Notes under the pieces: generated by a model
What the model saw: only the letters and a program-made list of their open reading frames with translations
Database searches by the model: none
Told to the model about the DNA's origin: nothing
Virus record (IMG/VR): IMGVR_UViG_3300018489_000278
DNA from: a virus
Taxonomy: Duplodnaviria; Heunggongvirae; Uroviricota; Caudoviricetes
Direction: 5' to 3' (one strand)
DNA: 64,000 nucleotides
In this document: positions 21,649 to 47,694 of the stretch, one piece after another
Numbering within the stretch: position 1 is the first letter of the stretch
How the letters are laid out: each line of letters opens with the position of its first letter
Program-made: the position numbers and the translations under genes

Positions 21649-22174
21649 AAAAGGATTTACTTTGATTGAAACAATTATTGCAATGGCTATAATGCTTGTT
21701 GTTATTACTATAATTTTTAGTGTTTTATCTCAGTATTTTACTATCAGAGTATTTTACGATCAGCAGACAGCATTAGAAAGGAATCTTGTTTATGCTTTAG
21801 ATAGTTTGTCATCAGACTTTAAGCAAGCGACAGCTGTAGGAAACACTGTTTTTGTGTCGCCGTCTGATAATTCAATGATAGATGCATCACCTACTAATCG
21901 TTTGTCTTTCTACGATGCTTCTGGTAATACTGTTTCATATTTTTTGCAACAACAGAATGGCATGTATGCAATTTATAAACAGTATGGCAATTCAACTGCA
22001 TATGCTATAACGGACAACATGCCGGAACTTGTTAAATTGTATTTTGTTAGACGTGGTGGAGAGATTATAGCCACAATAGTAGGTAAATATGAATATGGTG
22101 GCAAGCAGAATACTCTTTCTTTTACTTCTATTATATACTCGAGAAACTCTCCGCAAGCAACACCATCAACATAA
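21641..22174 (+). CDS. Type IV pilin-like / pseudopilin
   Basis: KKGFTLIETIIAMAIMLVVITI prepilin motif; start overlaps the upstream stop. Confidence 0.6.
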   Translation: MIKKGFTLIETIIAMAIMLVVITIIFSVLSQYFTIRVFYDQQTALERNLVYALDSLSSDFKQATAVGNTVFVSPSDNSMIDASPTNRLSFYDASGNTVSYFLQQQNGMYAIYKQYGNSTAYAITDNMPELVKLYFVRRGGEIIATIVGKYEYGGKQNTLSFTSIIYSRNSPQATPST

Positions 22175-22185: not shown

Positions 22186-23640
22186 ATGATGAAAAGAAAA
22201 GGTTTTGCTTTGATTTATACAGTAGTAGTTGCAATGCTAATTCTGTCTAGTATTGTTGCTTTATCTATAAAACTTGTTCCTGAAAAAACAATAACTGTTT
22301 CAAGAGTAAATTCGAATAGAGCTGATACAATCGCAGAACAAGGTTTATCTCAGGTAATGTTTGATTTAAGAAGTTTCGTAAATAATAGCTATACCGTTGA
22401 ATCTGGCAATAATCATTATTTACCTATTTCAAGTGGATACGATGCAAGTTCTGGTTTAAATCTCGTTGGTTTGTCTGATTTATTGGGTAAGACGAGCGGA
22501 GTTTATACTTATCCAGAAAAAATTATCTCGTCTTCTAATGGATATACTTCTGATTATCAAGCAAAGATAAAGGTTGTTAGCAATACAAATAATGTTATGC
22601 TCGCTGATGTGTACGTACTCGGTTATCTCAAAGATAAACAGAACAATATACTTTCAAGGTCTGTTGTAATGTCTTCTTTCAATGTAAATTACGATGTCTC
22701 CGTCACAGTTGGGAATTCAAGCATATTCAATTATGTTTTGTTTTCAGGATCAGATATATCTACAGCAGGAAATGCTACTTTTACAGGCAATGTTTTTGCC
22801 GATGGTTCAATTACAATGGTTGGTAATTCTAAAATTACAGGCGATGCATACGCACATGGAACGATTACACTTTCTGGTGGTGCAAAAGTAACAGGAGTAA
22901 AAAAATCAGGAGTGCAGGAAATTCCTTTTCCTAATATAAATACTGCATATTACCGAGGACTTGCAGATGCATTTAGAGCAGGCACTGCACCATACAATGG
23001 AACTGCTGGTTTTCCAAATACAAGCGATCCGTTAGTTAACAATGTTATTAAATCATATTTAGGTAGTCCAGGTAGTAATGAAAGTTTAACTAATATTTTA
23101 AGGTTTTGTTCAGATCTTGCAACTAAAGGCGGTGCTTTTAATAGTTTGACAACAGCACAGTGGGACAACATAAAAAGTAATGCACAGAATATAGTATATT
23201 ACTCAACAGACATGCTTCAGGCTACTTCTGATTTTCTATTTGTAGGTGTCCTTGTTTTAAATAATTCTTTTGGTGGATGCCAATTTGCAGGTTCTTCTAA
23301 TATAGGGAATACAACAGATTCCTCGTTATCAGCTTTGTTAGTAAACGGTCCTATTCAAATTGCTGGTAGCCCTTGTATTTATTGTAATTTTTATACGAAC
23401 GGGAATACACAGATAGCAGGTTCTCCCATTATTTATGGTTCTTTTGCGAGCAAATATATGATACAAGGTGCAGGCACTGGTACATTCAAAGCTTCTAAAA
23501 GCAGTGTTTTGAGTGTTTCTGGTCCTACCGTTGGAGGTGGATACAGCGTTGTATCTGTCGCAGGTAGTAGCACGTCTGATCCTAATGCTTTATATATATG
23601 GAGGCAAGTAAGCTATGATGAATTTGTCAATTTACGATAA
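22186..23640 (+). CDS. Large pilin-like protein with beta-helix-like repeats (PilX/minor-pilin or tip-adhesin-like)
   Basis: N-terminus KRKGFALIYTVVVAMLIL; internal repeats such as TAGNATFTGNVFADGSITMVGNSKITGDAYAHGTITLSGGAKVTG. Confidence 0.45.
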   Translation: MMKRKGFALIYTVVVAMLILSSIVALSIKLVPEKTITVSRVNSNRADTIAEQGLSQVMFDLRSFVNNSYTVESGNNHYLPISSGYDASSGLNLVGLSDLLGKTSGVYTYPEKIISSSNGYTSDYQAKIKVVSNTNNVMLADVYVLGYLKDKQNNILSRSVVMSSFNVNYDVSVTVGNSSIFNYVLFSGSDISTAGNATFTGNVFADGSITMVGNSKITGDAYAHGTITLSGGAKVTGVKKSGVQEIPFPNINTAYYRGLADAFRAGTAPYNGTAGFPNTSDPLVNNVIKSYLGSPGSNESLTNILRFCSDLATKGGAFNSLTTAQWDNIKSNAQNIVYYSTDMLQATSDFLFVGVLVLNNSFGGCQFAGSSNIGNTTDSSLSALLVNGPIQIAGSPCIYCNFYTNGNTQIAGSPIIYGSFASKYMIQGAGTGTFKASKSSVLSVSGPTVGGGYSVVSVAGSSTSDPNALYIWRQVSYDEFVNLR

Positions 23641-24208
23641 AAATAGAAATGGATTTACTTTATTAGAGATTGTTATTGTTATGGTTATTGCAGTTGTTAT
23701 GATAGGTATTGCAGTTCCTAATGCTGTTGCGTATGTTAACGCTAAACAATTGTATAATGCAGCTACACAACTTCAAGAAGACATTGCAATTATACAGAAT
23801 AAAGCAGTTACATATAGTTCTGCTAGTAATAAATTCGTTCTTCGTTTTTATATTGATGATAACGCTTATGCTTATGTGATAAAAGAAGGCAGTTATACAT
23901 TACCTCATACATTACCTAGTGATACGCAATGGCTGGTAGTTAGAGAATTTGGCAATAATTTTGGTTTTCCTGCCACTTTTGGTAATACTACTTATGAGTC
24001 AGTGCGTATAGGCGCTTATGATAAAGTGACGAGTGGCTATGTAGATATATATTTTGATAATAAAGGATTAGCTTATTGGTCTAATAATGGAGGTAATTTT
24101 CAACAGAGAAATGGTAATATTATTTTAGTTAATAGTAATTTGACAAAGGTTATCAACGTAACTGTTTCACCTTTAGGGACAGTATCAGTCGCATGGGTAA
24201 AAAATTAG
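23615..24208 (+). CDS. Type IV pilin-like / pseudopilin
   Basis: RNGFTLLEIVIVMVIAVVMIGIAV prepilin motif. Confidence 0.6.
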   Translation: MMNLSIYDKNRNGFTLLEIVIVMVIAVVMIGIAVPNAVAYVNAKQLYNAATQLQEDIAIIQNKAVTYSSASNKFVLRFYIDDNAYAYVIKEGSYTLPHTLPSDTQWLVVREFGNNFGFPATFGNTTYESVRIGAYDKVTSGYVDIYFDNKGLAYWSNNGGNFQQRNGNIILVNSNLTKVINVTVSPLGTVSVAWVKN

Positions 24209-30437: not shown

Positions 30438-31298
30438 ATGGAAAATGAGAGTTTTGACGAAGCTAAAAACACAGTAGAAGATCTAAAAAATCAGTTCATA
30501 GCTAAACTCAACAACTTATACACAAAGGACATAGAAAAAATACTCGTGCAACCTATTAAAAGAATAATAGATAATTACACTGTTTATGGATATGCATCTT
30601 TGATAGAGACGAAAGATAAAAACATTGCTGTTAAGAGATACTTATTACCTGCAGAAAAAAAAGAGCAATACGAAGATTATTTGGTTATTAGACCTTTTGA
30701 CTTAAGTAAAAATTGTCTTGCAGGTTCTGTTAGAGATATGAGTAAAGTATGGAAGCTATCAGATGGAAATGTTTATGTAGTTGTAGAAATAGCTAATGAA
30801 GTTGAAAAAAACGCGAACTTGGACGTCCTTACAAAAAGTTATGTCAAACAAATGGATAAAGATTTTTCATTGATTGAAGAAAAGTATAATGCAGCTAAAC
30901 AGAAGATAACACAAGAGTATAGGGTATCAGATTATTTTGATATAAAAGTGAATAGTAAAATTGCTTATTCTATTTATACAGATAAGAATTTGCTTTACAA
31001 CACATTTGACGACAATTGGTATATTGAAGCAACGATGTACATACCAGAAACAATAATGAAAAAGGCGCATATAAACGAAGATACGCCTTTTAACATGTTC
31101 GGTCCCAGCGTTAATGCACTTATAAATATTAACAAAAATACAATTATGCTTAACGGAAGAAAAGTAAAACAGTTGCACATGTATATATACGAGAGCAAAG
31201 ATTCCAATGAGGTAGAGAACACATATAATAAGACAATACAAAAAATTGTTAGTTTTATAGAAAGTCAGTTACAACAGAATAAAGAAAGTGAGAGATAG
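30438..31298 (+). CDS. Family A paralog 1 (VYAYA-YYLP family), unknown function
   Basis: NYTVYGYASL...VKRYLLPAE; KLSDGNVYVVVEIANEVEKN; NWYIEATMYIPE. Confidence 0.5.
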   Translation: MENESFDEAKNTVEDLKNQFIAKLNNLYTKDIEKILVQPIKRIIDNYTVYGYASLIETKDKNIAVKRYLLPAEKKEQYEDYLVIRPFDLSKNCLAGSVRDMSKVWKLSDGNVYVVVEIANEVEKNANLDVLTKSYVKQMDKDFSLIEEKYNAAKQKITQEYRVSDYFDIKVNSKIAYSIYTDKNLLYNTFDDNWYIEATMYIPETIMKKAHINEDTPFNMFGPSVNALININKNTIMLNGRKVKQLHMYIYESKDSNEVENTYNKTIQKIVSFIESQLQQNKESER

Positions 31299-31328
31299 TA
31301 TTATGGTGTTAGTTAGAGGTGAATAAAA

Positions 31329-32513
31329 ATGGATGATACACTAAAAGCAAAGGAGTCAGATTATAACCATGTGTATTCACAAGCAGTAGAAAATGTAGAA
31401 TTGGAGAAAGGTGTTTCTATGTCTAAACGGGTCTTTTTAGAAGAGAATATTCACAATTTAAGCGACAGCGGTGTTTACTATGCTGTTCTTTCAGTATATT
31501 TACCTATCGAAGGTATCGATGCTCAAATTCGTGAACTTGCCAAAAAATTGTCTTTTTTTATTGATGTAAAAGGAGAAAAAGTAAAAATTTCGGCAGATAT
31601 GTCAGATACAGGTAGTAAACTTAAACTTGTCAACGGTAATCAGTATATTTATTATCGTATTAGCGATATGTTCACAGACAAACAGGATGGCATTAGATAT
31701 GTTGAGGATGTGAAAAACAATATTCTCGTCAGAATCTCGGAACTTTACAAAAATAGAAGTATTGATATGTTGTGTAATCCTATAAGTAGAAATATAGTAG
31801 ACTATAAGGTTTATGCTTTTGCGGAGTTGAAACATTTATCTACAAAAGACTTGGTTGTTCATAGGTATTACTTTCCTTGCGAAAACGAACAAGCAAGACC
31901 TCCAAGAGGTTTAGTAAGAGGAGCGAGCGATATCGCAAAACATTACAAATATAAAGCCTCTTATCTTCAATCTGATTTTAATGGAATGTCTTATTTTGTT
32001 TTAGAAGTGGCTGACGAAGTAGAAAAAAATATTGACAAAAATACATTAGAGAAAGAGCATAGTATAAAAATAAATGCCGATTTAGAGACAGCACAAGACC
32101 TTTTTGAAGGGTTTAAGGATATCGATAGTAAAGAGTACGAAGATAGGCAAACTGGTTCTATTTTGATAGGAGGGAAGGAGACAGATGTTATAATTGATAA
32201 AAAAGCTGAATACAATGAAGCTATGAACGAGTGGCTTATAACAGCAAATATCTACATACCGGATAATGTTGCAAGAGCATTGAAGCTTAATAATTCTGTT
32301 TTAGATTCATTATCTCAAGAACATTTACTTTTCTTTGTAGATAAGGATAAGATAAGACTGCCTTCGACTGGGAAGAATGTAAGAAAAATACAATTAAATG
32401 TGTTTGATGTAGATACATTGGAAAATGCAGAGAAAGTGTTTCATGACGGATTCAACGCACTTATATCTCATATGAATAAAATAGCTCAAGCAAGCAAAGT
32501 AGAGGAGAAATAA
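31329..32513 (+). CDS. Family A paralog 2
   Basis: DYKVYAFAEL...VHRYYFPCE, RGLVRG, YFVLEVADEVEKN, NEWLITANIYIPD. Confidence 0.5.
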   Translation: MDDTLKAKESDYNHVYSQAVENVELEKGVSMSKRVFLEENIHNLSDSGVYYAVLSVYLPIEGIDAQIRELAKKLSFFIDVKGEKVKISADMSDTGSKLKLVNGNQYIYYRISDMFTDKQDGIRYVEDVKNNILVRISELYKNRSIDMLCNPISRNIVDYKVYAFAELKHLSTKDLVVHRYYFPCENEQARPPRGLVRGASDIAKHYKYKASYLQSDFNGMSYFVLEVADEVEKNIDKNTLEKEHSIKINADLETAQDLFEGFKDIDSKEYEDRQTGSILIGGKETDVIIDKKAEYNEAMNEWLITANIYIPDNVARALKLNNSVLDSLSQEHLLFFVDKDKIRLPSTGKNVRKIQLNVFDVDTLENAEKVFHDGFNALISHMNKIAQASKVEEK

Positions 32514-32518
32514 AGCGT

Positions 32519-33694
32519 ATGATGAAAGATGAAAAAATAAATCACCAGATTTCTTCTATTTTAGTAGGGCAAATCAAACTCGATGATAATGTATACGATC
32601 AAACAAGAGTTTTCATAGAACATTGGATAGAACAAGATGATTATAAATCATTTTTTTATACACAATACACTCAAATTTTTTTGTTATCTGACAAGTACGA
32701 CTACATTATACCCGAGTTTTCTAATAGGAGTGGAATGTTAAGATTTAAACTTGGCTATGAAGTTACTCTTGACGTTGAGCCATTTCATGCAAATGCAGAG
32801 AGGATTGGTAATGAGTATTATCATGCTATCACTATTGAAGAAAAAATCCATGATATTGATACAGCTATCGAAAAAATAAAGGAATATAATGAAACGCTGT
32901 CTAATTATTTCACCCGTCTCTACAAAAAGAATATAGGTAAAATAGTTGTTTCTCCTCAAAAAGTTTCTTGTGAAGATCAAACAGTTTATGCATACGCTTC
33001 CATAGGATTAGATGATAAAAAGAAGAAGAAAGTTATTAAATATTATTATTACTTACCATACGACATACAAAATAGCACAGTAGCAAGAGGATTCAAATCT
33101 GCCAAAGAACAATTAAAAGAAGTACCAGATCATGTAGATGATAATATTTTCCACGGTAGAGTTCTTTCAGATGGTAATATCTATTCACTTTTGATTGTTG
33201 AGACAGAAGTTAATAAATCTGTTAGTGAAATAAAAGATAAGATAAACAATGATTTGTCCATGATACATGACTTATATCCAAAAGTTATGCAAGAGATTCA
33301 AAAAGAACACGAAAGTGTTGGTAGTATGCATATATTCAAAGGATATAAAAACATAGATGTATATTATAAAGATTCGTTTGTGTTTCCTGAAGAAGAGTAT
33401 AATTGGGTAATGCATAGTAGCATATACATTCCTGTTAGTGCTTTTGACAACTACGAGCAATATGTGTTAGCAAAAGATGTTGTTCAAGATACAAATAGAA
33501 ATTATCGTTGGAGCGTAAGAGTGGACAATCCTCGAGAAATGTTTAATGGTGAAAATTGCTATGTGTTTTCTATTAGATTAGAGTTTAATGACGTAACAGA
33601 GGCAGAAGAAATGGCTAATAATGTTAGAAAACAATTTGTAGATCTTTTAACGGATAAAGTGTTTTCTCATTCAGTAGAGGAGCAAGAAAGATAA
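32519..33694 (+). CDS. Family A paralog 3
   Basis: DQTVYAYASI...YYYYLPYD, TVARGFKS, YNWVMHSSIYIPV. Confidence 0.5.
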   Translation: MMKDEKINHQISSILVGQIKLDDNVYDQTRVFIEHWIEQDDYKSFFYTQYTQIFLLSDKYDYIIPEFSNRSGMLRFKLGYEVTLDVEPFHANAERIGNEYYHAITIEEKIHDIDTAIEKIKEYNETLSNYFTRLYKKNIGKIVVSPQKVSCEDQTVYAYASIGLDDKKKKKVIKYYYYLPYDIQNSTVARGFKSAKEQLKEVPDHVDDNIFHGRVLSDGNIYSLLIVETEVNKSVSEIKDKINNDLSMIHDLYPKVMQEIQKEHESVGSMHIFKGYKNIDVYYKDSFVFPEEEYNWVMHSSIYIPVSAFDNYEQYVLAKDVVQDTNRNYRWSVRVDNPREMFNGENCYVFSIRLEFNDVTEAEEMANNVRKQFVDLLTDKVFSHSVEEQER

Positions 33695-33732
33695 TTGTAT
33701 GAAGACAAAAGAGTATATAAGAGGTGTAAAAA

Positions 33733-34904
33733 ATGGATAGTCAAGAGAACGAGATAAATTATGATTATTCTTCAATGTCTCTCATTGACAGTATTACATT
33801 AGATAAAGATATAGTGCGAGATATTGTGCTTGTGTTTCATCACACTATTCAAGCAGATACATCATCCGATATTGCTACCCATCAACTTACATCAGAAGTG
33901 TATTTTCCTGTGACTATAAGTAGTTCTGCTGTAGAAGAAATTATATCTAGTAATGTTTATTTGTCAGTCTTTATCGATATCAGAAAATGGAAGATTAATC
34001 TTAAAAGGCTTTTTTCTTATTCTGATAAGATATATGACGACAGGTTCTGTAAGGTTATACTATCTGTCTCCGGTAGTCCTAAAGACTTAGTTAAAAAAGC
34101 AGAGCAAATAGAGCAAGGCATATCTAAAAGTATAAAAGAAGCATATAAAACTAAGGTGGGCGAGTTATTGGTACCTTCTATGCATGTTGATATTGAAGAT
34201 AATAAGAAAGTGTATGCTTATGCAACGATATCTCATGGCAATAAAAAGGATAAAGTAACATTTTTCTATTACCTTCCTTGCCACACGGATTATCCTAAAT
34301 TAGTTAGAGGTCTTAAAGGCGTAGAAAGTCGACTAATGGAGGATAACTTTTCTTTTAACGAAGTTGTTTCACTTTCAAAAGGCAACACATTTAGCGTTGT
34401 TGCAATTGAAGAAAGAGTTCAAAAACAAGACATAGAAGCAACAAGAAGATGGGCAACGAGAAAAATGGAAGATATGCTTTTTAGTATAGAGAATGATTAT
34501 AAAAACTACATGGCAGAAATTAAGAAAGAAAAAACTATAAACAGTCAACAGAAATATATATAGGTGCAAGAAGAATCCCTATTTTTATTGAAAATCGTCT
34601 CTGTTTTAACGAAGATATTCCTTCTTATTGGTATGTTTATTCTACTGTTTATATTCCTGTTGATGAGCAATCTGAAGACGCAATAACACCTGAAGAGTGG
34701 GAGCTTGTAGAAAAATATGTTAAAGGTTGGGAATTTGCACGAGGTAGTTTTAAAGGATACTCCTGCGAGGTATTAGATAAAGGTGTATATGATCTCTATT
34801 CGATGCAAGAAGCGGAAACAGCAGCTGATGAGAATGTGATTATGCTTATTCAATTAGTCTATAATGTTTTAAATAACAAAATAAGAAGAGGTGAAGAGAG
34901 ATAA
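33733..34904 (+). CDS. Family A paralog 4, frame change near 34560
   Basis: NKKVYAYATISHG...FFYYLPCH, KLVRGLKG; the C-terminal block SYWYVYSTVYIPVDE is read in a different frame across 34569-34904. Confidence 0.45.
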
Positions 34905-34918
34905 GTGAAAAACATAGT

Positions 34919-35179
34919 GTGAGTTTTAATCGTAATTTTACGCTTAATCATCTTAGAATAGATCATAATGTATATTTTGATATTAATGTCTTTTTAACAA
35001 GCAAAATTTATGATTCATATATAACTCAGATCAATGTTTATTTACCTACAGTAGCAGAATTGTATAATGAAAAACCTATAACGTTTTTATTCAAGAACGA
35101 TAAGTGTGAGATTATTACAGATAGATACGACCAGGAAGAAGATATAGATGGCACTCAATATACAGTATATCATTTTTAA
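34919..35179 (+). CDS. Small hairpin-module protein (86 aa, GTG start)
   Basis: NVYFDINVFL...QINVYLPTVAEL resembles the family B module. Confidence 0.3.
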   Translation: MSFNRNFTLNHLRIDHNVYFDINVFLTSKIYDSYITQINVYLPTVAELYNEKPITFLFKNDKCEIITDRYDQEEDIDGTQYTVYHF

Positions 35180-35196
35180 GTAGTGTTTTTAATAAT

Positions 35197-36213
35197 ATGG
35201 AGGAGGCATTACAAAATTTAAAGCAGGCAGAAGAAGAAATTGAGAAAGAAATAAAAAGAATATACGAATTTAATACAAGTGAGATGTTAGTAGAACCCAT
35301 AACACTGTTCGAAGACAAAGACAGAAACAAAGTTTATTACTATGTTTATCGTGCATCAGTTCAACATTTCCAGTATGTTAATACCTTTTATCTTTTCCCA
35401 GCGGAAGCGAACGGATATGTCCGTGATCAGTTTAATTTTGTATTAAATAAAATGTTAACAACGGAACATTCACAAATAGATAGATACACTGTGCGTCTTT
35501 CAAACGGGAAAAACTATGTTGTTCTTTTTTGGAGAGATTTGTGGGATCTTTCATTTGCAAAAAGTCAAATTTACGAGGTATATGCCGATAAAGTATTTAA
35601 CCAAGCTCGTGATATGATAAGTAATGCATATAAAAAATATATAGAAGAAAAAAAGAAAGAACATATTGAGAATCAACAAATAGAATTTAAAGTAGGACAA
35701 GATAACTATTATCTTCTGATAAGTAAGAATTTTATGCTTGATATTAGTTCCCTTACATGGACATGCCATTGCGATCTTTCCGTTCCTCACATTGATTCAC
35801 CAAACTATATACCAGTTAAATTTAAAAAGAAATTGCTACAAACAAAATTTGGCAAAGATAGTATAGAATGGCATGTAGAAGAAGTTTCAACGCATTCTGC
35901 CTATGGCACTATATATGATGTATACGATTGCTTTGTAAAAGGTCAGACATTAGAAGAAGCTAAACAGTCTATAAATAATGTATTAGAAGAAACAAAAGAA
36001 TGGATTGAAAAAATATTGAAACAAAGAGGGATGAGGATCTTGAGCGATAATAGTCATAACATTGTTTGTGTTCTACATAATGTTGAGCTGGAAGATAGAG
36101 TAGAGGATACATTGTCATTATTAATAAGAAGTCAAATAAGGCAAAACAGTCTTGGAAACTATTTTTTATCATTGATATTTATTTACCTTCTGGCTTCTAT
36201 CACAGTAACATAA
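35197..36213 (+). CDS. Family A paralog 5 (divergent)
   Basis: NKVYYYVYRAS...NTFYLFPAE, RLSNGKNYVVLFW, LTWTCHCDLSVPHIDSPNYIPV. Confidence 0.45.
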   Translation: MEEALQNLKQAEEEIEKEIKRIYEFNTSEMLVEPITLFEDKDRNKVYYYVYRASVQHFQYVNTFYLFPAEANGYVRDQFNFVLNKMLTTEHSQIDRYTVRLSNGKNYVVLFWRDLWDLSFAKSQIYEVYADKVFNQARDMISNAYKKYIEEKKKEHIENQQIEFKVGQDNYYLLISKNFMLDISSLTWTCHCDLSVPHIDSPNYIPVKFKKKLLQTKFGKDSIEWHVEEVSTHSAYGTIYDVYDCFVKGQTLEEAKQSINNVLEETKEWIEKILKQRGMRILSDNSHNIVCVLHNVELEDRVEDTLSLLIRSQIRQNSLGNYFLSLIFIYLLASITVT

Positions 36214-36286
36214 CACCAGAAATAAGGGACATCACTAACCATATTACTAATATTAGTAGTAAAAAATCTTCATTGAACGAGAGCAA

Positions 36287-37156
36287 ATGGAAAAAATTGA
36301 CATAAATGAAAATCATTATGTTTATAAAAGCGTAGAAAGTGATCTATACGAAACTTCCGATAAAGCAGTAAGTGCATTAAAAAATACAGAAGACGATATT
36401 ATAACAAACATTAAGAAGATATATAAAACAAATATGGGTGATTCGCTCTTTTATCCTCTCCACAAATATATAGACAGAGGCAAAGCAGTATATGCATATG
36501 CGAGGCTCTTGCAGAGAAATGGTTCTAATTGGATAGTAAGAAGATGCTACTACTTGCCAGTAGAGGATGAACAAAATATCTCAGAAAGAGTATTTCATTA
36601 CGCAGAACGAAAAATAGGAATGTCTGCTTCTACATGTTTTTCTACAAGAAAACTTTCTGATGGTAAGTATTACGGTATAGTTTACGTGGACGATAGGACC
36701 GAACCAAATAAAGATGTTGGTACGCTACGTAGGGAGTATCTGACAAAACTACGAGCAGACCTCGATTTGATAGAATCGTCTTATGTGATAGCTACAAATG
36801 CGATTAAGAAAGAATTTAGCGATAAGAGAATAAAAACAATCAGTGTCTTCGGCAAGAAAAACGATGCAATAATCTTTAAACATTGTTTTTATAATGACTA
36901 CGAGAATAATTGGGGAGTGAAAGCAAGTATTACTTTAGCTGAGAAAGTATGTCTTGATATAGTAGATAAATTAGGTAAGAAAATAGATGGATGGAAATTT
37001 GACGACTTGAAGCTTGTTGAACCTGCGAATAATTTTTCTTTTGAATTTAGAAAAACAGACATTCCAACATACGCAGAAGCTGAAAAGATTTTGGATAATA
37101 AGATAAAGTCATTTATAGAAAAAGTAGCAAGTAAGAACATAGAGGAAGAAAGGTAA
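36287..37156 (+). CDS. Family A paralog 6
   Basis: GKAVYAYARL...VRRCYYLPVE, RKLSDGKYYGIVYVDD, NNWGVKASITLAE. Confidence 0.5.
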   Translation: MEKIDINENHYVYKSVESDLYETSDKAVSALKNTEDDIITNIKKIYKTNMGDSLFYPLHKYIDRGKAVYAYARLLQRNGSNWIVRRCYYLPVEDEQNISERVFHYAERKIGMSASTCFSTRKLSDGKYYGIVYVDDRTEPNKDVGTLRREYLTKLRADLDLIESSYVIATNAIKKEFSDKRIKTISVFGKKNDAIIFKHCFYNDYENNWGVKASITLAEKVCLDIVDKLGKKIDGWKFDDLKLVEPANNFSFEFRKTDIPTYAEAEKILDNKIKSFIEKVASKNIEEER

Positions 37157-37159
37157 GTC

Positions 37160-38325
37160 ATGCGAAACGAAGAATATAGAGAAGTGGGATATTATAAATT
37201 AGGCGAGCAAAAATTCAGCGATAAGGCAAAAATATTAACAGATGTGCATGTCCTTAAAAGAATTATAGATCATAGTCCAAATCAGTATTTTACATATGTG
37301 CATTTTTACTTACCGTGCAACTATCATGGTTCAGTTGTTCCTGAAATAGTTGGCAGAGGCCGTCAAATCAGTATAGAGTATAAAGGCCACACATATAATG
37401 TAGATTTAGACTATCCAGAAGCCTCTGCATATGTTGAAAATCTTCTCTATTTGCAATTCACTATATCAGGTTCACTACAAACAATGAAAGATGCAACAAT
37501 ATTTGCTAAAGAAATTGAGAGAAGGATGATTAAACAGTTACTTGAAAATTATGTTAACAATACACAAAAAATGTTATTATACAACCACTTAGTGTATCTG
37601 TGGATACCAAGAATAAAGTTTTTGCTTACGCTACATGTAGAGATACTAAGTTTAATCATATCATTAATACTTTTTATTTGCTTCCAGGCTACAATGCAGA
37701 ACAATCAATAAAAAGACCATTTTTACCTTCCGTGCACGATTTAGTTACCGAGGACCATGCAGAAGAATTAGGCGACCGCTATATGGATAATGGCCAAATT
37801 TATCATATGCTTTTAACACAAAACAAGATAAGTATTTCAGAGGATATAAATGATGTAATCAATCTTACCAAAGCAGAAATCGACAAGAGGTTTGAAAAAA
37901 TTAAGACGAAGTATTATGCAGCCAAGAATGAGATACAGAAAGAAACCAATACAAAAAATGTATTCTACCTCGATGTTGGCCATAATAGATTTGAGATAGA
38001 CATATTTAATACCTTTATTTTTGATTCGTATACATCAGAATGGAATTGCCATATAAGTATAGATATATACATGGATTGTGCGTTGAACAAAGGCATATTG
38101 AGAGAAGCAATGAGCAAGAATAATAGAGTCTTTCATGTTTTGTCTGTTGGTAAGACTTTACATGGTAACGATCTGTTAAGCGTTGAAGAATATGGAGCGA
38201 ATATACATCGCACTAGCACATTTGATGAGGCAAAAGACCAAGCAGATAGAATAACAAGCGAATTGTTGAATGATGTTTTTGATACTTTGAGAAAAGTTTA
38301 TGCAGAAAAAGAAGAAGAAAAATGA
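37160..38325 (+). CDS. Family A paralog 7, frame change at the A6 run near 37565
   Basis: N-terminal part carries QYFTYVHFYLPCNY; after the shift PLSVSVDTKNKVFAYATCRD...NTFYLLPGY and SEWNCHISIDIYMD. Confidence 0.45.
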
Positions 38326-38377
38326 TAAAACTTTTAAAATTATATACAAAAAAGTTAAATTTGTGGTATAATAGGGT

Positions 38378-38962
38378 ATGGAGCTAAAAGAACTATTAAA
38401 GTTTTTATTAGAAAAACAAAAGAAATGCCAATATGTGGTCTCTTTTAAAGAGATCTGTGAACAATTTACAGACGAAAAGGCACAGAGTATTAACATTCAG
38501 CTTCACAGATTTGCAAAAGAGGGTATGATTGTACCACTTGTCAAAGGATACTACACAAATCCATTCATGGCAGAAGAAAAACCAGAAACAATTCTGTTAG
38601 AACTTGCAAAGAAATTGAGACCTAACGATAAATTCTATTTGTCTTTAGAATATGATGCTTTCGAGTGCAATATGATCAATCAAGTGCCTAATGGTTTTAC
38701 TTTTGTAACTACTGGTAGAAGTTATAGGTATTATACACCGGTTGGAGTTATCCATTTTACTCATTTATCGAATATCAATTTAGAGTCTGAGTATATCTTC
38801 CAAGATAAATGGAGAGGAATTTATGTTGCAGAACCAAAACAAATTATTATGGATGCAATCAAGCTTAAGAAGTTTGATTTAATTGATCTTATTTTAGAGA
38901 AAAATGATGAATACAAGAGCGTAGAAGATCTATTAGAGAATTATAGAGAGGAGGAAGATTAA
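38378..38962 (+). CDS. AbiEi-like antitoxin (type IV TA transcriptional regulator)
   Basis: 194 aa directly upstream of and coupled to an AbiEii-family nucleotidyltransferase. Confidence 0.5.
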   Translation: MELKELLKFLLEKQKKCQYVVSFKEICEQFTDEKAQSINIQLHRFAKEGMIVPLVKGYYTNPFMAEEKPETILLELAKKLRPNDKFYLSLEYDAFECNMINQVPNGFTFVTTGRSYRYYTPVGVIHFTHLSNINLESEYIFQDKWRGIYVAEPKQIIMDAIKLKKFDLIDLILEKNDEYKSVEDLLENYREEED

Positions 38963-38963
38963 G

Positions 38964-39806
38964 ATGAGCATGAAAATTAATTTTAATGAAGGGAAAAAGT
39001 CGAGAGAAACGATTCAACTGATTATCTTACAGATCTTATCCGATAGAGGTTATACAAACGATATTACTTTTCACGGGGGCACATGCGAACATTTCTGCTA
39101 TAAAAATCCGAGGTATTCTGAAGACCTTGATTTTGTTACCACAAAAAATGTTAATTTTAATGCTATAAGTCAAACACTTCAAGAAGAACTGCCAAAATAT
39201 ATTTCAAACAAGATAAAAGTTGTGGGCCAAGAGAGAGATTATTCAGACAACATTGTTAAAAAGATTAAAGTAAGAGTTTTTCCGGATGATCCTAATAAAA
39301 GAAAAATTGAGGTTATTGTTGAATTTGCAACAGACATTCCAAACTACACAAGAGTATTCGCCAATATTAAAGGAGGTGAATTCGATTTTTCTTTAAATGC
39401 AGAGGCAATGGAAGAAATTTTGGCAGATAAAGTAGTTGCATTTGGCTCAAGAGCAATTTGGAAAAGTACTCCTTTTAAGGCGCGTGATTTATGGGATATT
39501 TATTGGTTAATTCAAAATAACATTAAACTCGATCCTTCTATGGTTGTTAAGAAGATAAAAAATTATAAAGAGAGTTACACTAATTTTCTTGAAATATTTG
39601 AAAAAAGATTAGAGACTCTCCATGATGAAAAAAGTATAGATGCGTTTCAGAACGGAATGCTTTCTTATGTTGATGGTAGAGAAGAGGAATTGGTTAAAGA
39701 TAAAGATTTTGTAAAGAATCTACTCTCAACCATTTATCCATTTTTATCTGATGCTTTGCATAAAGTTGAAGAGAACGCGAGATATGCAGAAGAACCTGAA
39801 AGATAA
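38964..39806 (+). CDS. AbiEii/AbiGii-family nucleotidyltransferase toxin (DUF1814)
   Basis: ITFHGGTCEHFCYKNPRYSEDLDF matches the family GGTxL...R.SxDLD nucleotidyltransferase motif. Confidence 0.65.
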   Translation: MSMKINFNEGKKSRETIQLIILQILSDRGYTNDITFHGGTCEHFCYKNPRYSEDLDFVTTKNVNFNAISQTLQEELPKYISNKIKVVGQERDYSDNIVKKIKVRVFPDDPNKRKIEVIVEFATDIPNYTRVFANIKGGEFDFSLNAEAMEEILADKVVAFGSRAIWKSTPFKARDLWDIYWLIQNNIKLDPSMVVKKIKNYKESYTNFLEIFEKRLETLHDEKSIDAFQNGMLSYVDGREEELVKDKDFVKNLLSTIYPFLSDALHKVEENARYAEEPER

Positions 39807-39882
39807 ATGAAAGATATGATACAAGCTCAGTTGTTAGTATATTCATCAGCGTTTAAAGAAGTTTTTGTAGAAATCGTAAATT

Positions 39883-41082
39883 ATGAATTATAAGGAGGCG
39901 TACACAATGAGACAAATGAGTAGAATTGCTTTACCACCAATAAAGTTAGACGATGACTTTATTGTATCACATGACTTTATAAGCGAATACGAAACATCAT
40001 ATAATGTTGTTAGGTATTCTTTTTATGTTCCTATTCTCCAGTATTCAGATAGAGAATATCTTGTTATCCCAGAATTAGATAATAAATTGCCTGGGCATTC
40101 TTTGTTAATTGATTTTGGAGAAGATAATGGCCGTGAGAGTATTCTTTCTACAGCATACAGAGACAGAAAAGTATTTTTAATCGATTCTGACTATTATTAT
40201 AAAGCCGAATTTATGAGGTCTTTCCCTACTTATCAATCTGCTACAAAAAACATGAAGGATGTTGCAGAACAGGTAAAGAATAAAGTTACCTCATTATATT
40301 CCTCTGCTGTTTCTGATATGATTGTTCCTCCTCAAAAAATTGAGATTGGAGGCAGTAAAAGTTATTTGTATACAACTTTTGCTGATGGTACAAAAAATAA
40401 GTTTGTAAGTAGGTTTTATTATTTGCCTTACCACTATAGGTCATCTATTTATCGTAATGTTGAAAATGGATATGGAGGTTTTTTGCATAAACTTACAAAA
40501 GATCCTAACTTTAAGTATGTAGGCATAAGAAAGAGCAACAACGGAGTTAAACAGTATTATGTTGTAATGATACAAGAAAGTATTGATAAAGCTCTATCTT
40601 ATGTAGATATTAAGTCTTTTTATCAAAATAAAGCCAAAGAAGATATAGAAGCAATCCAAAATGGTTATAAACATGCGATGGAGTCTTTTGCAAAAGAAAA
40701 AGAAGATAAGAAGGATTTTACTGTTCATAACATATTTGGAGATATACAATATACAGCCGTAACTACTTATTCGTATCTTGAAAATGAAGATCGGTGGCAC
40801 ATGAAAGCATCAGTTCGTCTTTTTGTTCCTTCCAATTCTGCTATTTCAGATCTTTTTGTTAACGCAATGGAAACTATCGGATTTAAAAATGCTAGTAATC
40901 CTGCATACTCAGTAAATATTGATGGCCAACCTATGGATATTCATTATATCAATATAGGGTCTGTTGATACAAATACAATAGAAGATGGAGAAACAAAGGC
41001 TATGGAGTTTATTAATAAGTTTCATTCAGCGGTACAAAAATCAGTTATGTTAGCTATGCAAACAAGACGAGTAGAAAGATAA
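39883..41082 (+). CDS. Family A paralog 8 (divergent)
   Basis: MIVPPQKIEIGGSKSYLYTTF...SRFYYLPYH and DRWHMKASVRLFVPS. Confidence 0.45.
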   Translation: MNYKEAYTMRQMSRIALPPIKLDDDFIVSHDFISEYETSYNVVRYSFYVPILQYSDREYLVIPELDNKLPGHSLLIDFGEDNGRESILSTAYRDRKVFLIDSDYYYKAEFMRSFPTYQSATKNMKDVAEQVKNKVTSLYSSAVSDMIVPPQKIEIGGSKSYLYTTFADGTKNKFVSRFYYLPYHYRSSIYRNVENGYGGFLHKLTKDPNFKYVGIRKSNNGVKQYYVVMIQESIDKALSYVDIKSFYQNKAKEDIEAIQNGYKHAMESFAKEKEDKKDFTVHNIFGDIQYTAVTTYSYLENEDRWHMKASVRLFVPSNSAISDLFVNAMETIGFKNASNPAYSVNIDGQPMDIHYINIGSVDTNTIEDGETKAMEFINKFHSAVQKSVMLAMQTRRVER

Positions 41083-41792: not shown

Positions 41793-42074
41793 ATGAGAGT
41801 AGAGATAAGTATAGAATCATTAGACAAAAGAGACAATTCTCATTTTTATGAGATCTCTTTCCGTATCGATAATATCAATAATATAAACACCGATCATCTT
41901 TCGCACATGTGCGAAGAAATGGTTACCAAGAATTTTATGTGTGAGATAAAGGGCAATACACTGTTTGCTTATCGTTATTATAAAGAGTCAGAAATAACAA
42001 AATTAAAAAAGATACTAGTTTTATTTTATCTTTGTTATATAAAAGTAAAAAAAAGAGTGATAAAGCGGGGGTGA
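41793..42074 (+). CDS. Small hypothetical protein (93 aa)
   Basis: Coupled ORF. Confidence 0.25.
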   Translation: MRVEISIESLDKRDNSHFYEISFRIDNINNINTDHLSHMCEEMVTKNFMCEIKGNTLFAYRYYKESEITKLKKILVLFYLCYIKVKKRVIKRG

Positions 42075-42078
42075 AGGC

Positions 42079-42432
42079 ATGATACATAACGTTCGTGTAG
42101 CAAATGAAGTAAGTTTAACAGATGAAAATCCTCAGAGAAGTCAGTACTTTACATTAAAGGTAAATTTCGATGAACTTGACACTATTCCTAAAAAGTTATT
42201 TAATCAGTTTACAGATGAGGTTGTTAGTATATTTGGAGATAAACTTGATATGGGGTTGGATGAAGATCCTGAAAATGAATATGATAATTCTATCATCCAT
42301 TTTGTAAAAACTTACAGTGCAGATGAGATACAAGAATTAGTTGCTGACATAGACGTGGCGATTAAAGAAAGTAAGAGAATTGCGCAGAAGTATAACGCAT
42401 ATGTTCAAAAAAATAATGAGCAAACAAGATAG
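42079..42432 (+). CDS. Small hypothetical protein (117 aa)
   Basis: Coupled ORF. Confidence 0.25.
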   Translation: MIHNVRVANEVSLTDENPQRSQYFTLKVNFDELDTIPKKLFNQFTDEVVSIFGDKLDMGLDEDPENEYDNSIIHFVKTYSADEIQELVADIDVAIKESKRIAQKYNAYVQKNNEQTR

Positions 42433-42441
42433 GAGGATAAA

Positions 42442-42925
42442 ATGGAGTTAACAACAGAAAATATAGAAAAGATTGCAACCTATATATACGACATTGCAAG
42501 AGAGTATTTATCACTCGATCCAGAATACAAAATAGATATATTTATTAAAGGTGGAGAATTAGAGCATTCAGATCCTGTTCCTATTAGCCAGAATGTATTA
42601 TATCCTAAAGGTGCAGAGGTTATCTATACATTAGAAGGTTCTTTTTTGAGAACACTATTAAAAACACAGATAGAAGAAAAGTTGTTGCAATTTATCTTGG
42701 AGAAAAAGGTACTTTACCAGTTGCTTTAGAGAAGAAAATAAACGAGAACCGTAAAAAGCTTATTGAATATGCTGAAGGGACTAAAGATTTTAAAGAGATT
42801 TCGCCAGAAGCACAAAATACAGTTGATGAGCTATTTGTTCATTTTATGCTTGATAAATTATACAACGAGGTTTATGGAGATTTGACTGACATAGTTTATG
42901 AGAAAAATTACGAAGAAAGATAAAA
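42442..42925 (+). CDS. Small hypothetical protein, probable frame change near 42700
   Basis: The 42442 ORF ends at 42729 but the adjacent frame continues to 42925. Confidence 0.25.
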
Positions 42926-42928
42926 GAG

Positions 42929-43237
42929 GTGATAGGTATGGTAAAGGAACGAATAACATTAACTCAAGAAGAGGAAAAAGGCGTACCTTATTTTGATTTA
43001 GAGGTCATCATATCAGGATGCAAGAATTTGCCACAAAACAAAAGAGAAGATGTGATATCTACAATCACCAATATTTCATTAAGCCAAAGAGACAGTAGAG
43101 ACAGCGACAAAATGATTTTTGGTAGAAGGTTTTCAGAACAACAGTACGATAATGCAGTAAACAATTTTTATAGAGCAATTATTGTTGTGGAACAGTTAGT
43201 TCAGGATTTGAATTATGAATTGAGTATAGAGAGGTAA
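42929..43237 (+). CDS. Small hypothetical protein (102 aa)
   Basis: Coupled ORF. Confidence 0.25.
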   Translation: MIGMVKERITLTQEEEKGVPYFDLEVIISGCKNLPQNKREDVISTITNISLSQRDSRDSDKMIFGRRFSEQQYDNAVNNFYRAIIVVEQLVQDLNYELSIER

Positions 43238-43241
43238 CACT

Positions 43242-43487
43242 ATGATAAAAGAAGCGAGATTCAAAGAACTTACAGATGATACAGGTAGAAAACATTACAG
43301 AGTCTCTTTTTTTATCCACGGTGCAGATGAAGAAGCAATAGCTCTTTTGTCTAATAAACTTCGTGGTTTTCTTTGTTTTGATATAGATAGAGATGCTTGC
43401 GAGTTTGCTCGCTTTTTCATTGATGAGAAAGAAGCAAAAAATATCTTTAAAGCTTTATACGATGATTATACAATAAATCAGAGGTGA
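43242..43487 (+). CDS. Small protein, paralog of 44293-44466
   Basis: KHYRVSFFIHGADEEAIALLSNKLRGF aligns with TYSVYTVSLFIDGANSMLDED..LKKLLEEDGF. Confidence 0.3.
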   Translation: MIKEARFKELTDDTGRKHYRVSFFIHGADEEAIALLSNKLRGFLCFDIDRDACEFARFFIDEKEAKNIFKALYDDYTINQR

Positions 43488-43491: not shown

Positions 43492-43869
43492 ATGGAGAAA
43501 CTGTATCTTCTGAACTCTGGGAATGTTCCTGTTGACTGGGAGCATTATCCTAAGGTAGTTGTCGAAGAAGCAGTAATAAGTAAAGATAGCGTTAAAATGA
43601 TACTCCAGAACACTAAATTTGTAAATGCCGTAGGCCACGAAGCAACTGCAAAGTTTTTAAGTGAATTGCTTGATATAGATATAAAGCCTGTTAGAAGAAA
43701 AGTTCTTCTCGAACCTGGTGATAGAGCAATATGTTTCCAACTGTTAGATAGATTACCTGAAGGTAAAGTTTTGACAGAAGAAGAATTAAGTAAAATTCAG
43801 TACAAATTTATACTTGCATATGTAAAAGAAAAAACTTTGGTGGAAGAGATAGAGGAGAGCGAACGATGA
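43492..43869 (+). CDS. DUF1874-like (STIV B116-like) small phage protein
   Basis: KLYLLNSGNVPVDWEHYP...VNAVGHEATAKFLSELLDIDI...LEPGDRAICFQL; recalled family resemblance, not verified. Confidence 0.35.
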   Translation: MEKLYLLNSGNVPVDWEHYPKVVVEEAVISKDSVKMILQNTKFVNAVGHEATAKFLSELLDIDIKPVRRKVLLEPGDRAICFQLLDRLPEGKVLTEEELSKIQYKFILAYVKEKTLVEEIEESER

Positions 43870-45293: not shown

Positions 45294-46106
45294 ATGCAAC
45301 AAAACATATTTTCAGAAACTAAAAGTTATAAAATAGCAGAAAATATAGATGTAGCATTTTCTGTCTCATATGTAGAGACAAGTATAAAGTGGATAGTTGA
45401 CATACGTTGCATGCTCCCTGTAAACGATTCACGAGCACTGATTAGAGAATTATGGAAAGAGGATGAGGATGTGTTCGGTAATGAATTAGAGCCTTTTATT
45501 GGTGAGTTTTTCACAACGGATAACGATTCCTCTTTTCGTGTTGTTTCTAATACTTTCTTTTTTCCTATTGACAGAGATATTACAGATGTTAAAAAAGAAA
45601 TTAATAAAATTATAAATGACATAGTCAATATGCTAAGTCAAGTATATCTTTCAAATATAAGTAGGATTAAAAATGAGATCCATGATAGTAAACAGATTGT
45701 TTTATCAACGCATTCTGACAATAATAACTCTATTGTTATATTAATTAAAAGAGATATTGGTTTTGCCACACTTTTGCATAAGTGGTATCTTGATACTACA
45801 GTGGGTATACCTGCAATAAAGAAAGGCGCTGTTGTATCACTTATTCCTGAGTTTAACAAAATAGGTGATGCGAATATTCGTCAAATTCTGTTTCCCGATA
45901 AGTTAGATGTGGAAGAGAATGTATTGAATACTGAGCAAGGTCTTTTTTGTCTTTTTTATAGTCGTGAATATTTTAAGACATCAGACATAGAAGCAGTAAA
46001 TATAATCAAAGAATATGTTGAAGAAGAAAATCAGAGGATTATTAATTCTCTTGAAGATATAGTTAGAGATTATGTAAGAAAGGTGCAAGAGAATGGAATA
46101 TATTGA
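45294..46106 (+). CDS. Family B paralog 1 (hairpin-LP module family)
   Basis: ENIDVAFSVSYVETSIKWIVDIRCMLPVND and a second module ...TTVGIPAIKKGAVVSLIPE. Confidence 0.5.
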   Translation: MQQNIFSETKSYKIAENIDVAFSVSYVETSIKWIVDIRCMLPVNDSRALIRELWKEDEDVFGNELEPFIGEFFTTDNDSSFRVVSNTFFFPIDRDITDVKKEINKIINDIVNMLSQVYLSNISRIKNEIHDSKQIVLSTHSDNNNSIVILIKRDIGFATLLHKWYLDTTVGIPAIKKGAVVSLIPEFNKIGDANIRQILFPDKLDVEENVLNTEQGLFCLFYSREYFKTSDIEAVNIIKEYVEEENQRIINSLEDIVRDYVRKVQENGIY

Positions 46107-46890
46107 AGAGTATTATACTTATACGATAGATGATAATATAGATGTTCTTTTTAGTGTTCTGTATAAAGATCATGATGTTGAAGTTACAGTATTCTTGCCC
46201 ACAGCAGGGGATGATTCACCTTATTTGAAGTATGAACTATTAGATCCGGGTGTAAAGATTTTCAGAGAAGAACTTGATAACAATTTTGGCAGGCTAACAC
46301 ACATAAAAGTTAAAGCAAATGAAACATCATATTATCTTGCCAGCGATAAGATATTTGAGTTTCCCTCTTATTATGATTTTAATCGAATCAAGAAAGAAGT
46401 TTTGGATATCATAGAAGAGACATTTAATACCATTAAAGGCGTCTATTTACACAATAAACATATGTTAAAGCAAGATTTTTCAACGACTAAATTATTCACA
46501 CTTAAGAACAAAACTGTAGATGGACAAGAAATTCGAGTTTATATTAAGTGGGATGTCTTTTACCATTTATTGCCTAAAATGTGGTATGTTGAACTTTCGA
46601 TATTTTTGCCAGCAGATGAGAAAAGTGGACACGAAAAACCTATTCCTGAATTAAGATGTAAAAATTTATTAGCTCTTGAGAAAAAAATTTTTGATGTTTG
46701 TGACTTAGTAACAACTGAACCCGTATGTATTGGAAATGAGTGGTTCTATGCGTTAGAGAACGAAGCTGCTTATAAAGTAACCGGTAGCGAAGCTGACATG
46801 CGGAAAGAAATAGAAGAGAGAACGACTAAAATTATTAGTATACTTGATAATCTTGTTAAGAAAAACAGATCTGCTATGGTAGAGAGGTGA
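46093..46890 (+). CDS. Family B paralog 2
   Basis: DNIDVLFSVLYKDHDVEVTVFLPTAGDD; KMWYVELSIFLPADEKSG. Confidence 0.5.
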   Translation: MEYIEEYYTYTIDDNIDVLFSVLYKDHDVEVTVFLPTAGDDSPYLKYELLDPGVKIFREELDNNFGRLTHIKVKANETSYYLASDKIFEFPSYYDFNRIKKEVLDIIEETFNTIKGVYLHNKHMLKQDFSTTKLFTLKNKTVDGQEIRVYIKWDVFYHLLPKMWYVELSIFLPADEKSGHEKPIPELRCKNLLALEKKIFDVCDLVTTEPVCIGNEWFYALENEAAYKVTGSEADMRKEIEERTTKIISILDNLVKKNRSAMVER

Positions 46891-46896
46891 GCTTTA

Positions 46897-47694
46897 TTGG
46901 AGAAAGAATATATAATTAGGAATATAGACGATAAAATACAGATCACTTTTGATATTGAGTATAAATTTAATGAAGGTATAGCATATATTCATCTTATATT
47001 ACCTGTAAATAAATCAGGTTTTCTTATTGAAGAGCTACAGAGTAGCAAAGAAAGTGTTTTAGGGAAAAAATTATGGAAAATGTGGGGCAAGGAAGTCTTA
47101 TCAGGATCTAATCACAATAATCGTTTTAGAGAAGTATCTATTCCTTTTTATATACCTAACAACAATATGTTCGTGGCAAAACAAGTTGTTTACGATGCGA
47201 TAGACAGCATCACAAATAAACTTAAGCAGATATCAACAGAAAATAAAAGAGAAATGAGTAAGAACTTCGAAAAAGAAGAAACGATAGTATTAGGCAACAA
47301 AACAGCGAATAACACGATAATACAAATCATATTGAAAGAGTTTTTCTTTTTTGATACTTACGATCGGGAATGGTGCTACATACTACATGTCGGACTACCT
47401 TCAGAAGTGCAACAGGGGAGAATTATCCCAAGCACAAAGATATTAAGAATAGCAGATAAAAATGAAATCCTATCAAAATATCACTTGTTTCTTGATGCTA
47501 ATGCAGATACAGAAACAATTGGGAAGGAGCGATATGTATTCTTGAGAAGCAAAGTTTACTCGTGTGGAAACGATTATAATAAAGCAGTGCAAATTGCAGA
47601 AGAGATAAAAACACAAGTTGTCAATAGCATAGAAAAAGAAGTATTGAAAAACAGAGAACATGATATAATGTTAATAAAGAGTGAGCAGAGGTGA
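46897..47694 (+). CDS. Family B paralog 3
   Basis: DDKIQITFDIEYKFNEGIAYIHLILPVNKSG; REWCYILHVGLPSE. Confidence 0.5.
   Translation: MEKEYIIRNIDDKIQITFDIEYKFNEGIAYIHLILPVNKSGFLIEELQSSKESVLGKKLWKMWGKEVLSGSNHNNRFREVSIPFYIPNNNMFVAKQVVYDAIDSITNKLKQISTENKREMSKNFEKEETIVLGNKTANNTIIQIILKEFFFFDTYDREWCYILHVGLPSEVQQGRIIPSTKILRIADKNEILSKYHLFLDANADTETIGKERYVFLRSKVYSCGNDYNKAVQIAEEIKTQVVNSIEKEVLKNREHDIMLIKSEQR

Follow-up and report, generated by a model that had tools for sequence, protein, structure and literature searches.

The record IMGVR_UViG_3300018489_000278 of the IMG/VR virus database (Caudoviricetes) holds a stretch of 64,000 nucleotides, here called the window, which carries an array of tandem genes for an unnamed protein family between positions 30438 and 41082. 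An earlier note on this DNA had listed eight open reading frames (ORFs), starting at 30438, 31329, 32519, 33733, 35197, 36287, 37160 and 39883. All eight were found at these positions, co-oriented on the plus strand; the corresponding genes are designated paralogues A to H. BLASTP comparison of each ORF with all stop-to-stop ORFs of the window linked all eight with E-values between 3e-21 and approximately 1e-4; unrelated ORFs gave values above 0.01. The strongest pairs were A-B and B-F (3e-21 each). Pairwise identity among the paralogues is 19-31%, close to the 20-25% estimated in the note. The three shared blocks, on which the note had based its proposal of a family, were recovered in the MAFFT alignments A1 and A2 (LVxP..(V/I)YAYA..YYLP; LSDG..Y.V; W......IYIP), and matches of the A2 profile reach 1e-120 among the paralogues. 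The homology of all eight ORFs is real.

The size range of 285-400 amino acids given in the note turned out to be mostly an assembly artefact. The JGI contig Ga0192806_1000020 (L005, 111,788 bp) covers positions 24912-45688 of the window. Over this interval the two sequences show 0 substitutions and 24 single-base indels, every one of which (24/24) is located in an A/T homopolymer. In the window they interrupt nrdD (at 28799); in L005 they interrupt nrdD, several paralogues and the gene for RNA ligase. Because nrdD and the RNA ligase gene are also broken in one assembly or the other, the indels are best regarded as homopolymer assembly errors; tmk and dnaN are split as well, in contig L069. 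This error signature means that ORF calls in the window have to be treated with care. In a related metagenomic scaffold (L001, 93-95% nucleotide identity) these genes are uninterrupted, with ORFs of 372-395 amino acids, and Illumina-type relatives carry intact ORFs. The short or split copies E, F and G are the result of single-base frameshifts in A/T homopolymers, and the same is probably true of D. The breaks of D (A-run near 34520) and F (T-run near 36150) are common to the window and L005, and are absent in L001. L158, from another JGI sample, shows the same break pattern as the window, which fits a systematic error but could also come from real variants.

The native size of the family is approximately 370-405 (about 390) amino acids, and full-length members consist of an N-terminal, a middle and a C-terminal module (N-module, middle module, C-module). 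Paralogue A (30438-31298, 286 amino acids; A2 profile 6e-72) alone truly lacks the N-module; full-length A-like relatives with an N-module occur in L067 and L155. Paralogues B (31329-32513, 394 amino acids) and H (39883-41082, 399 amino acids) are intact proteins with three modules, and paralogue C (32519-33694, 391 amino acids) is also intact. The ratio of non-synonymous to synonymous substitution rates (dN/dS) is 0.12 for C and 0.21 for B, whose L001 orthologue is 95% identical at the amino acid level.

The remaining four ORFs of the list also belong to genuine paralogues, and their boundaries were corrected. Paralogue D (33733-34904) is interrupted by the A-run frameshift near 34520-34563. 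The ORF 33733-34563 has no in-frame block 3, which is found in the 34524-34904 frame encoding the C-module (C-module hidden Markov model (HMM), 6e-20). The L001 orthologue is intact and 392 residues long. Paralogue E (34919-36050) has 1-nt homopolymer deletions at 35173 and 36008, as deduced from the list of indels relative to L005 and from inspection of the frames; ORF 35197 continues the 34919-35179 frame, and the orthologue P0002 of L001 is intact with 395 residues. Paralogue F (36040-37156; A2 HMM 4e-76) has its N-module broken by T- and A-run frameshifts (approximately 36150 and 36291), so that the called ORF, 36287-37156, corresponds to the middle and C-modules and the gene starts at 36040. 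The A-run indel at 36291 differs between the window and L005, and the L001 orthologue is an intact protein of 372 residues. Paralogue G (37160-38325) is split by a 1-nt deletion in an A-run at 37566. The ORF 37160-37711 represents the N-terminal module alone, and blocks 1-3 lie past the deletion in the overlapping frame 37558-38325. The L001 orthologue, intact with 388 residues, is identical save for the indel.

We also considered that the blocks reflect chance or low-complexity similarity, or that the genes are decaying pseudogenes, as the AT-rich sequence and the frameshifts in several window copies might suggest. This explanation has next to no probability and is refuted by E-values on the order of 1e-21 (pairwise) and 1e-120 (against the profile), by dN/dS values below 1, by the intact ORFs of the Illumina-type relatives, and by the 24 A/T-run indels between the window and L005, which also break nrdD and the RNA ligase gene and are therefore assembly errors. 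Chance similarity and pseudogene decay are excluded.

The genes are tightly packed, with gaps of 3-38 nt at most junctions and of 52-76 nt ahead of F (as called), AbiEi and H. The note's description of the genes as co-directional holds for the whole array, but because of the 52-76 nt gaps translational coupling, which it also claimed, applies only to some junctions. A promoter and terminator scan did not reveal enrichment of either element in the array, and neither tRNA genes nor Rfam matches were found.

The presence of an AbiE toxin-antitoxin pair within the array, reported in the note, was confirmed by Pfam and PADLOC. Genes encoding the AbiEi antitoxin (38378-38962, plus strand; PADLOC 7e-32) and the AbiEii nucleotidyltransferase toxin (38964-39806, plus strand; Pfam AbiEii 6e-23, PADLOC 1e-43) are situated between paralogues G and H. 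The AbiEi gene lies directly upstream of the DUF1814/AbiEii gene, 1 nt apart, which is the arrangement characteristic of type IV AbiE toxin-antitoxin systems. The 52-nt gap before abiEi contains a promoter-like site with an extended -10 element at 38343-38372 (TATACA, 18 nt spacer, TG, TATAAT), which fits an autonomous, autoregulated AbiE operon within the array.

The paralogues did not match any family in Pfam (noise alone at E <= 1), PHROGs, PADLOC, NCBIfam or the PDB sequences, in agreement with the note, whose author had recognized no known domain. No profile match was obtained with the Pfam models of CesT, YbjN and related proteins, nor with the Imm, SUKH and SuFu Pfam families. Megablast with 15 kb against annotated phages and tblastn with paralogue B against phages and plasmids yielded no match, and a search for the paralogue C locus in GTDB genomes and IMG/VR found no relative. 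Homologues of the element's RNA ligase, with up to 49% identity, are present in at least 80 IMG/VR contigs; the family HMM did not detect a family member at 80 IMG/VR loci carrying RNA ligase. Even when run with profiles, word-indexed protein searches returned just 1-3 proteins. The HMM was run exhaustively over 1.84 billion representative proteins and matched 28 of them. One of these, the weak match P0029, is a repetitive lysine-rich protein without counterpart in the family loci, and was rejected. The other 27 belong to the window element, to its variant L001, to a second element (L065/L067) and to a third one (L152 and related contigs); all 27 are nameless in every source and none has an NCBI accession. 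As judged from these searches, the family appears to be confined to three or four related elements. The protein family, the array and the carrier element are previously undescribed; the organizational principle is already known, and it is the fold arrangement and the family that are new.

A family member was also seen in a different setting. Contig L155 (ENA ERZ15185456 NODE_4026, positions 1-7664; GC approximately 38%) carries an nrdD gene, identical to the nrdD of the element at 83% over its 3' 1.8 kb, followed by a truncated A-like member that has an N-module. This member adjoins three genes for branched-chain amino-acid-binding proteins and a canonical HU gene. L155 may be a chromosomal remnant or represent a different host context.

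Comparison of related elements, proposed in the note as a check, revealed variation in both copy number and content. L001 has one extra paralogue, between C and D. In L152, whose flanks are 96% identical to the window, three members are inserted ahead of the RNA ligase gene, a position at which the window has no member. The second element carries at least 15+2 copies: a 17.4-kb tandem run of approximately 15 members with AbiEi after it in L067, and two members ahead of the RNA ligase gene in L065. Between the window element and the second element, the flanking genes are 96% (NrdD N-terminus), 89% (RNA ligase) and 90% (AbiEi) identical, and the positional counterparts in the array 84% (A), 48% (G), 30% (F), 27% (E) and 24% (C). 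As these comparisons show, the membership of the arrays turns over quickly, by gain, loss and replacement.

The note had further proposed repeated duplication under strong diversifying pressure. Such a pressure was not demonstrated. Gene-wide dN/dS between close orthologues of the window and L001 is 0.12-0.58, a range indicative of purifying selection, under which the individual members remain. Divergence between the two loci is mosaic: G and AbiEi are identical, and D has 84% nucleotide identity. The dN/dS values and the mosaic divergence point to functional genes and to recombination. Recent duplication or gene conversion in the window is not supported, since the array contains no DNA repeats longer than 31 nt.

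Another conceivable role for the paralogues is that of sensors or modulators of a defence system with the embedded AbiE, for example as decoys or regulators through which AbiEii would be set free upon infection. The AbiEi/AbiEii genes are kept at the same array position in three element variants (AbiEi follows the array also in L001 and L067), and there are other defence genes on the element. However, AbiE is a self-contained two-gene system, PADLOC finds nothing else, and some arrays are located elsewhere than at AbiE, namely ahead of the RNA ligase gene in L065 and L152 and, in the window, at 45-56 kb. We consider this role very unlikely.

Paralogue C was modelled with AlphaFold2 from a 24-sequence alignment (predicted local distance difference test (pLDDT) 85.2, predicted template modelling score 0.82). 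The model contains three copies of a module made up of a long beta-hairpin, a third strand, 2-4 short strands and a helix of approximately 25-27 residues. The third strand of each module ends in an aromatic-x-Pro motif. Conservation in the family is concentrated on this motif in each module, on other aromatic residues, glycines and hydrophobic residues, and on a Lys-Glu pair ending the second long helix; no conserved polar residue of catalytic type was found in the family alignment. The profile of the N-module cross-matches the C-module weakly (hhalign P 6e-4; also by HMM), which supports internal triplication. On the basis of the model, the ancestral form is predicted to be a single chain of approximately 390 amino acids with three tandem alpha+beta modules. 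Inspection of the paralogue sequences revealed no signal peptide or transmembrane segment. The proteins are only mildly acidic (isoelectric point approximately 5.6, compared to a background of 5.9), and DNA mimicry was rejected for this reason.

The whole three-module arrangement had no match among solved or viral predicted structures, and a Foldseek search of BFVD (viral predicted structures) gave no meaningful match. In a Foldseek search of the PDB the first match was ARPC2 of the Arp2/3 complex (probability 0.8-0.9, approximately 290 columns, template modelling (TM) score 0.17-0.27), with actin capping protein lower among the matches. Like ARPC2 (p34), which has two, the paralogues have consecutive beta-sheet-plus-long-helix modules in one chain. 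However, ARPC2 is a eukaryotic cytoskeletal protein to which they have no sequence similarity and just the low TM-score mentioned, and convergence or a generic, very remote fold probably accounts for the resemblance. These matches raise the question of whether the paralogues are structural proteins that co-assemble, as a virion or decoration component, as a nucleoid or segregation scaffold, or as an ARPC2/CapZ-like platform with an actin-like protein. ARPC2 and capping protein are both platforms of beta-sheet plus long helix, the element does encode an actin-like protein of the ALP_N type, and the coding investment is large, up to approximately 17 kb. On the other hand, the TM-scores are low, and complexes are normally fixed in stoichiometry and membership, whereas here the copy number varies (8 to at least 17) and one member takes the place of another from one near-identical element to the next. 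A structural role is therefore judged improbable.

Beyond the array, further related genes are located downstream on the plus strand. A tandem trio of two-module paralogues (270, 265 and 265 amino acids) lies at 45294-47694; the A2 HMM detects them with E-values from 8e-8 to 6e-6, and hhalign aligns the trio to the family with a probability of 96.6% (E 7e-10, 235 columns). Between 48563 and 56602 a looser network of distant paralogues, connected by BLASTP links of 1e-3 to 2e-11, is interspersed among other genes. Its best supported members are 50564-51412, 51409-52635, 53134-53892, 54029-55156 and 55757-56602, and its weaker ones 48563-49312, 49377-49841 and 49918-50265. The A2 profile matches 51409-52635 with E 8e-14, and hhalign relates A4, the alignment of this second distant group, to A2 with a probability of 92% (E 6e-7). 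In the AlphaFold2 model of 51409-52635 (overall pLDDT 63, C-terminal part 80-94) the hairpin-strand-long-helix module occurs twice. The superfamily may thus code for up to approximately 17 kb of the element. Small ORFs (81-117 amino acids) following thyX, at 41793-43487, resemble single hairpin-strand-helix modules by eye; their matches to the module HMM are insignificant.

The carrier is an AT-rich mobile element of approximately 112 kb, in which the arrays occupy accessory gaps between conserved genes of nucleotide metabolism (RNA ligase, nrdD, thyX). Positions 1-4994 of the window are Coprothermobacter chromosome, 98% identical to the metagenome-assembled genome (MAG) contig JAZIGN010000003. 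At 4994 a truncated Zn-alcohol dehydrogenase gene, intact in the MAG, is joined to an N-terminally truncated SPFH/stomatin-like gene (ORF 4984-5643), and the GC content falls from 44% to 32%. That both genes are cut at this point suggests a chimeric join or a non-site-specific insertion and not integration at an att site. Exact-pattern scans of metagenome contigs near the left end of the element found nothing. The C. proteolyticus prophage known from the literature is a different, incomplete prophage and not this element.

Most ORFs of the element are orphans. Defence-type genes are those of a type IIG restriction-modification (RM) enzyme, a HepT-like toxin and AbiE. The RM enzyme (6286-9661; Eco57I/MmeI-like, PADLOC 2e-137) matches its profile from position 290 onwards, and the upstream ORF 6286-6876 (DUF7149) probably represents the N-terminal part of the enzyme, set apart by a frameshift. 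The HepT-like RNase toxin domain is encoded by ORF 13756-14157, next to an RNase H/RVT_3 ORF (14208-14654). Enzymes acting on nucleic acids include, besides RNase H, DNA methyltransferases, an HD protein and the RNA ligase; nucleotide metabolism is represented by NrdD with its radical-SAM activase, ThyX and Tmk. Replication, segregation and chromatin-type functions are represented by DnaN, DnaB, ParB-like proteins, the ALP_N protein and HU. There are two types of peptidases: a large secreted-type S1 peptidase with Cu_amine_oxidN1 and fn3 domains (18587-20875), and an M50 (RseP/SpoIVFB-like) PDZ metallopeptidase (57449-58477). ORF 43492-43869 has a STIV_B116-like domain (PF08960, Pfam matches for L005), best known from crenarchaeal viruses. 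Four ORFs with a prepilin N-methylation motif encode prepilin-like proteins (14635-15132, 20887-22174, 23615-24208), and a prepilin peptidase (A24) is encoded downstream of the window, on L069 from 20186 onwards. Prepilins, A24 peptidase, ALP_N and HU are not usual phage genes and point to an element that is plasmid-like or encodes a pilus. Taken together, the gene content mixes phage-like genes (NrdD, ThyX, RNA ligase) with plasmid-like ones (ALP_N, ParB-like proteins, prepilins). Between 5000 and 64000 of the window, 22 of the 81 plus-strand ORFs end with Glu or Gly, then Arg or Lys, then stop (e.g. ...EEER*). The last codons spell GAGG or GAAAGG, so that the upstream gene apparently contains, within its C-terminal codons, the Shine-Dalgarno sequence of the gene that follows.

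The predicted fold corresponds to that of class I type III secretion (T3S) chaperones and YbjN proteins (alpha-beta-beta-beta-alpha-beta-beta-alpha, two-layer, approximately 120-150 residues). Class I T3S chaperones (SycN, SicP, CesT) and the YbjN family (AmyR, DR_1245) are, however, single-domain homodimers of approximately 120-150 amino acids, whereas the paralogues have approximately 390 amino acids and three fused modules. To our knowledge type IV pilus systems use no such chaperones. It is conceivable that the paralogues serve as dedicated chaperones or adaptors for proteins that the element exports, transfers or packages; each paralogue would keep one cognate cargo secretion-competent, in the manner of class I T3S chaperones. 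Secretion chaperones are the best structural matches, and the element has the four prepilin-like proteins, the prepilin peptidase and secreted-type peptidases. Yet the genes of class IA chaperones adjoin those of their effectors (PMC5398634), whereas the neighbours here are other paralogues, nrdD, thyX and AbiE, with no adjacent effector. No set of 8-17 candidate cargo genes accompanies the array, and there are no T3S system genes in the window. A cargo-chaperone function is accordingly unlikely.

The locus is best explained as a multigene family, restricted to one lineage, whose products are cytoplasmic binding proteins without enzymatic activity. The chaperone/YbjN-type non-enzymatic fold, the restriction of conservation to core residues, the cytoplasmic location, the tight co-oriented arrays, the fast turnover of content and the neighbouring conflict genes (AbiE, type IIG RM, HepT-like toxin) argue for stoichiometric binders with diversified specificities. 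YbjN-type proteins likewise have no conserved residues of catalytic type, and function through protein-protein interaction (PMC5398634). Homogeneous polyimmunity loci consist of tandem, distantly related, co-oriented paralogues separated by short gaps, with content that differs between close strains (Zhang, Iyer, Aravind et al. 2012, PMC3482391). Their members are non-enzymatic alpha+beta binders, some with several domain repeats per chain (PMC3482391). The present array of eight genes, with 3-76 nt gaps and 19-31% identity, resembles such loci, as do the differences in content between close relatives (L001, L152, L067/L065) and the repeated alpha+beta modules in one chain. Its organization agrees with most of the published features of homogeneous polyimmunity loci and multi-domain polyimmunity proteins (PMC3482391), and among described arrangements these come closest to it.

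Differences from these loci are also evident. The array is interrupted by AbiEi/AbiEii, which is a toxin-antitoxin module and not a polymorphic toxin cassette. The paralogues belong to no Imm, SUKH or SuFu family, and neither the window nor the related loci showed a polymorphic toxin gene. Polyimmunity loci are chromosomal, whereas this array is on a mobile element.

If the analogy holds, each paralogue would bind and sequester a different protein partner stoichiometrically. The most likely partners would be effectors with a toxic or defensive action, produced by the host or by competing elements or cells, and the array would provide the element with a pre-emptive repertoire of inhibitors, immunity or counter-defence proteins. 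We tentatively favour such a repertoire, organized like a polyimmunity locus, while rating its probability somewhat below even. An anti-defence or immunity role, as the note had suggested, is a reasonable reading of the organization and the fold. Of the note's observations, the divergent tandem paralogues with the embedded AbiE stood up to analysis; the phage setting and the diversifying pressure were not established.

Several observations weigh against the inhibitor or immunity repertoire. No binding partner, toxin or defence system has been linked to any paralogue. No likeness to a known anti-defence protein was found in PHROGs, Pfam, BFVD structures or the PDB, and no known immunity family was matched by Pfam, PHROGs, PADLOC or NCBIfam. 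The gene-wide dN/dS values below 1 contain no signal of positive selection. The array is not uniquely divergent either, because other backbone genes are just 43-60% identical between related elements. Capsid, terminase and tail genes were not seen in the 64 kb of the window, where prepilins, ParB-like proteins, the actin-like protein and HU, along with the prepilin peptidase, accompany the phage-like NrdD, ThyX and RNA ligase. Finally, the host assignment is tentative, because the join at 4994 may be chimeric.

Tandem divergent paralogues located between conserved core genes, with copy numbers that differ between close relatives, are found in the MGF360/505 genes of African swine fever virus (ASFV), in the host-range arrays of poxviruses and in the hyperplastic regions of T4-like phages. 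The array shares this pattern of divergent tandem paralogues varying in number between core genes; its fold and host domain are unrelated. An extended version of the repertoire reading would be that the paralogues are single-chain triple-module inhibitors with a chaperone fold, each neutralizing a different effector of the host or a competitor. With 8 to at least 17 close and approximately 10 distant members, and up to approximately 16% of the 112-kb genome, they would rank among the largest homogeneous families for counter-defence or immunity that a prokaryotic mobile element carries, and would be a bacterial counterpart of the multigene families of ASFV and poxviruses. This version we regard as possible but doubtful.

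Whatever the function, all reference databases essentially lack the family, and the carrier element is itself undescribed. If the array is indeed an inhibitor or immunity repertoire, it would offer approximately 20-30 natural, structurally uniform binders, whose targets would point to new defence or toxin systems in the poorly studied thermophilic phylum Coprothermobacterota, or in whichever organism is the true host. It would also mean that the logic of polyimmunity operates on large mobile elements, through a chaperone-type fold fused in triplicate.

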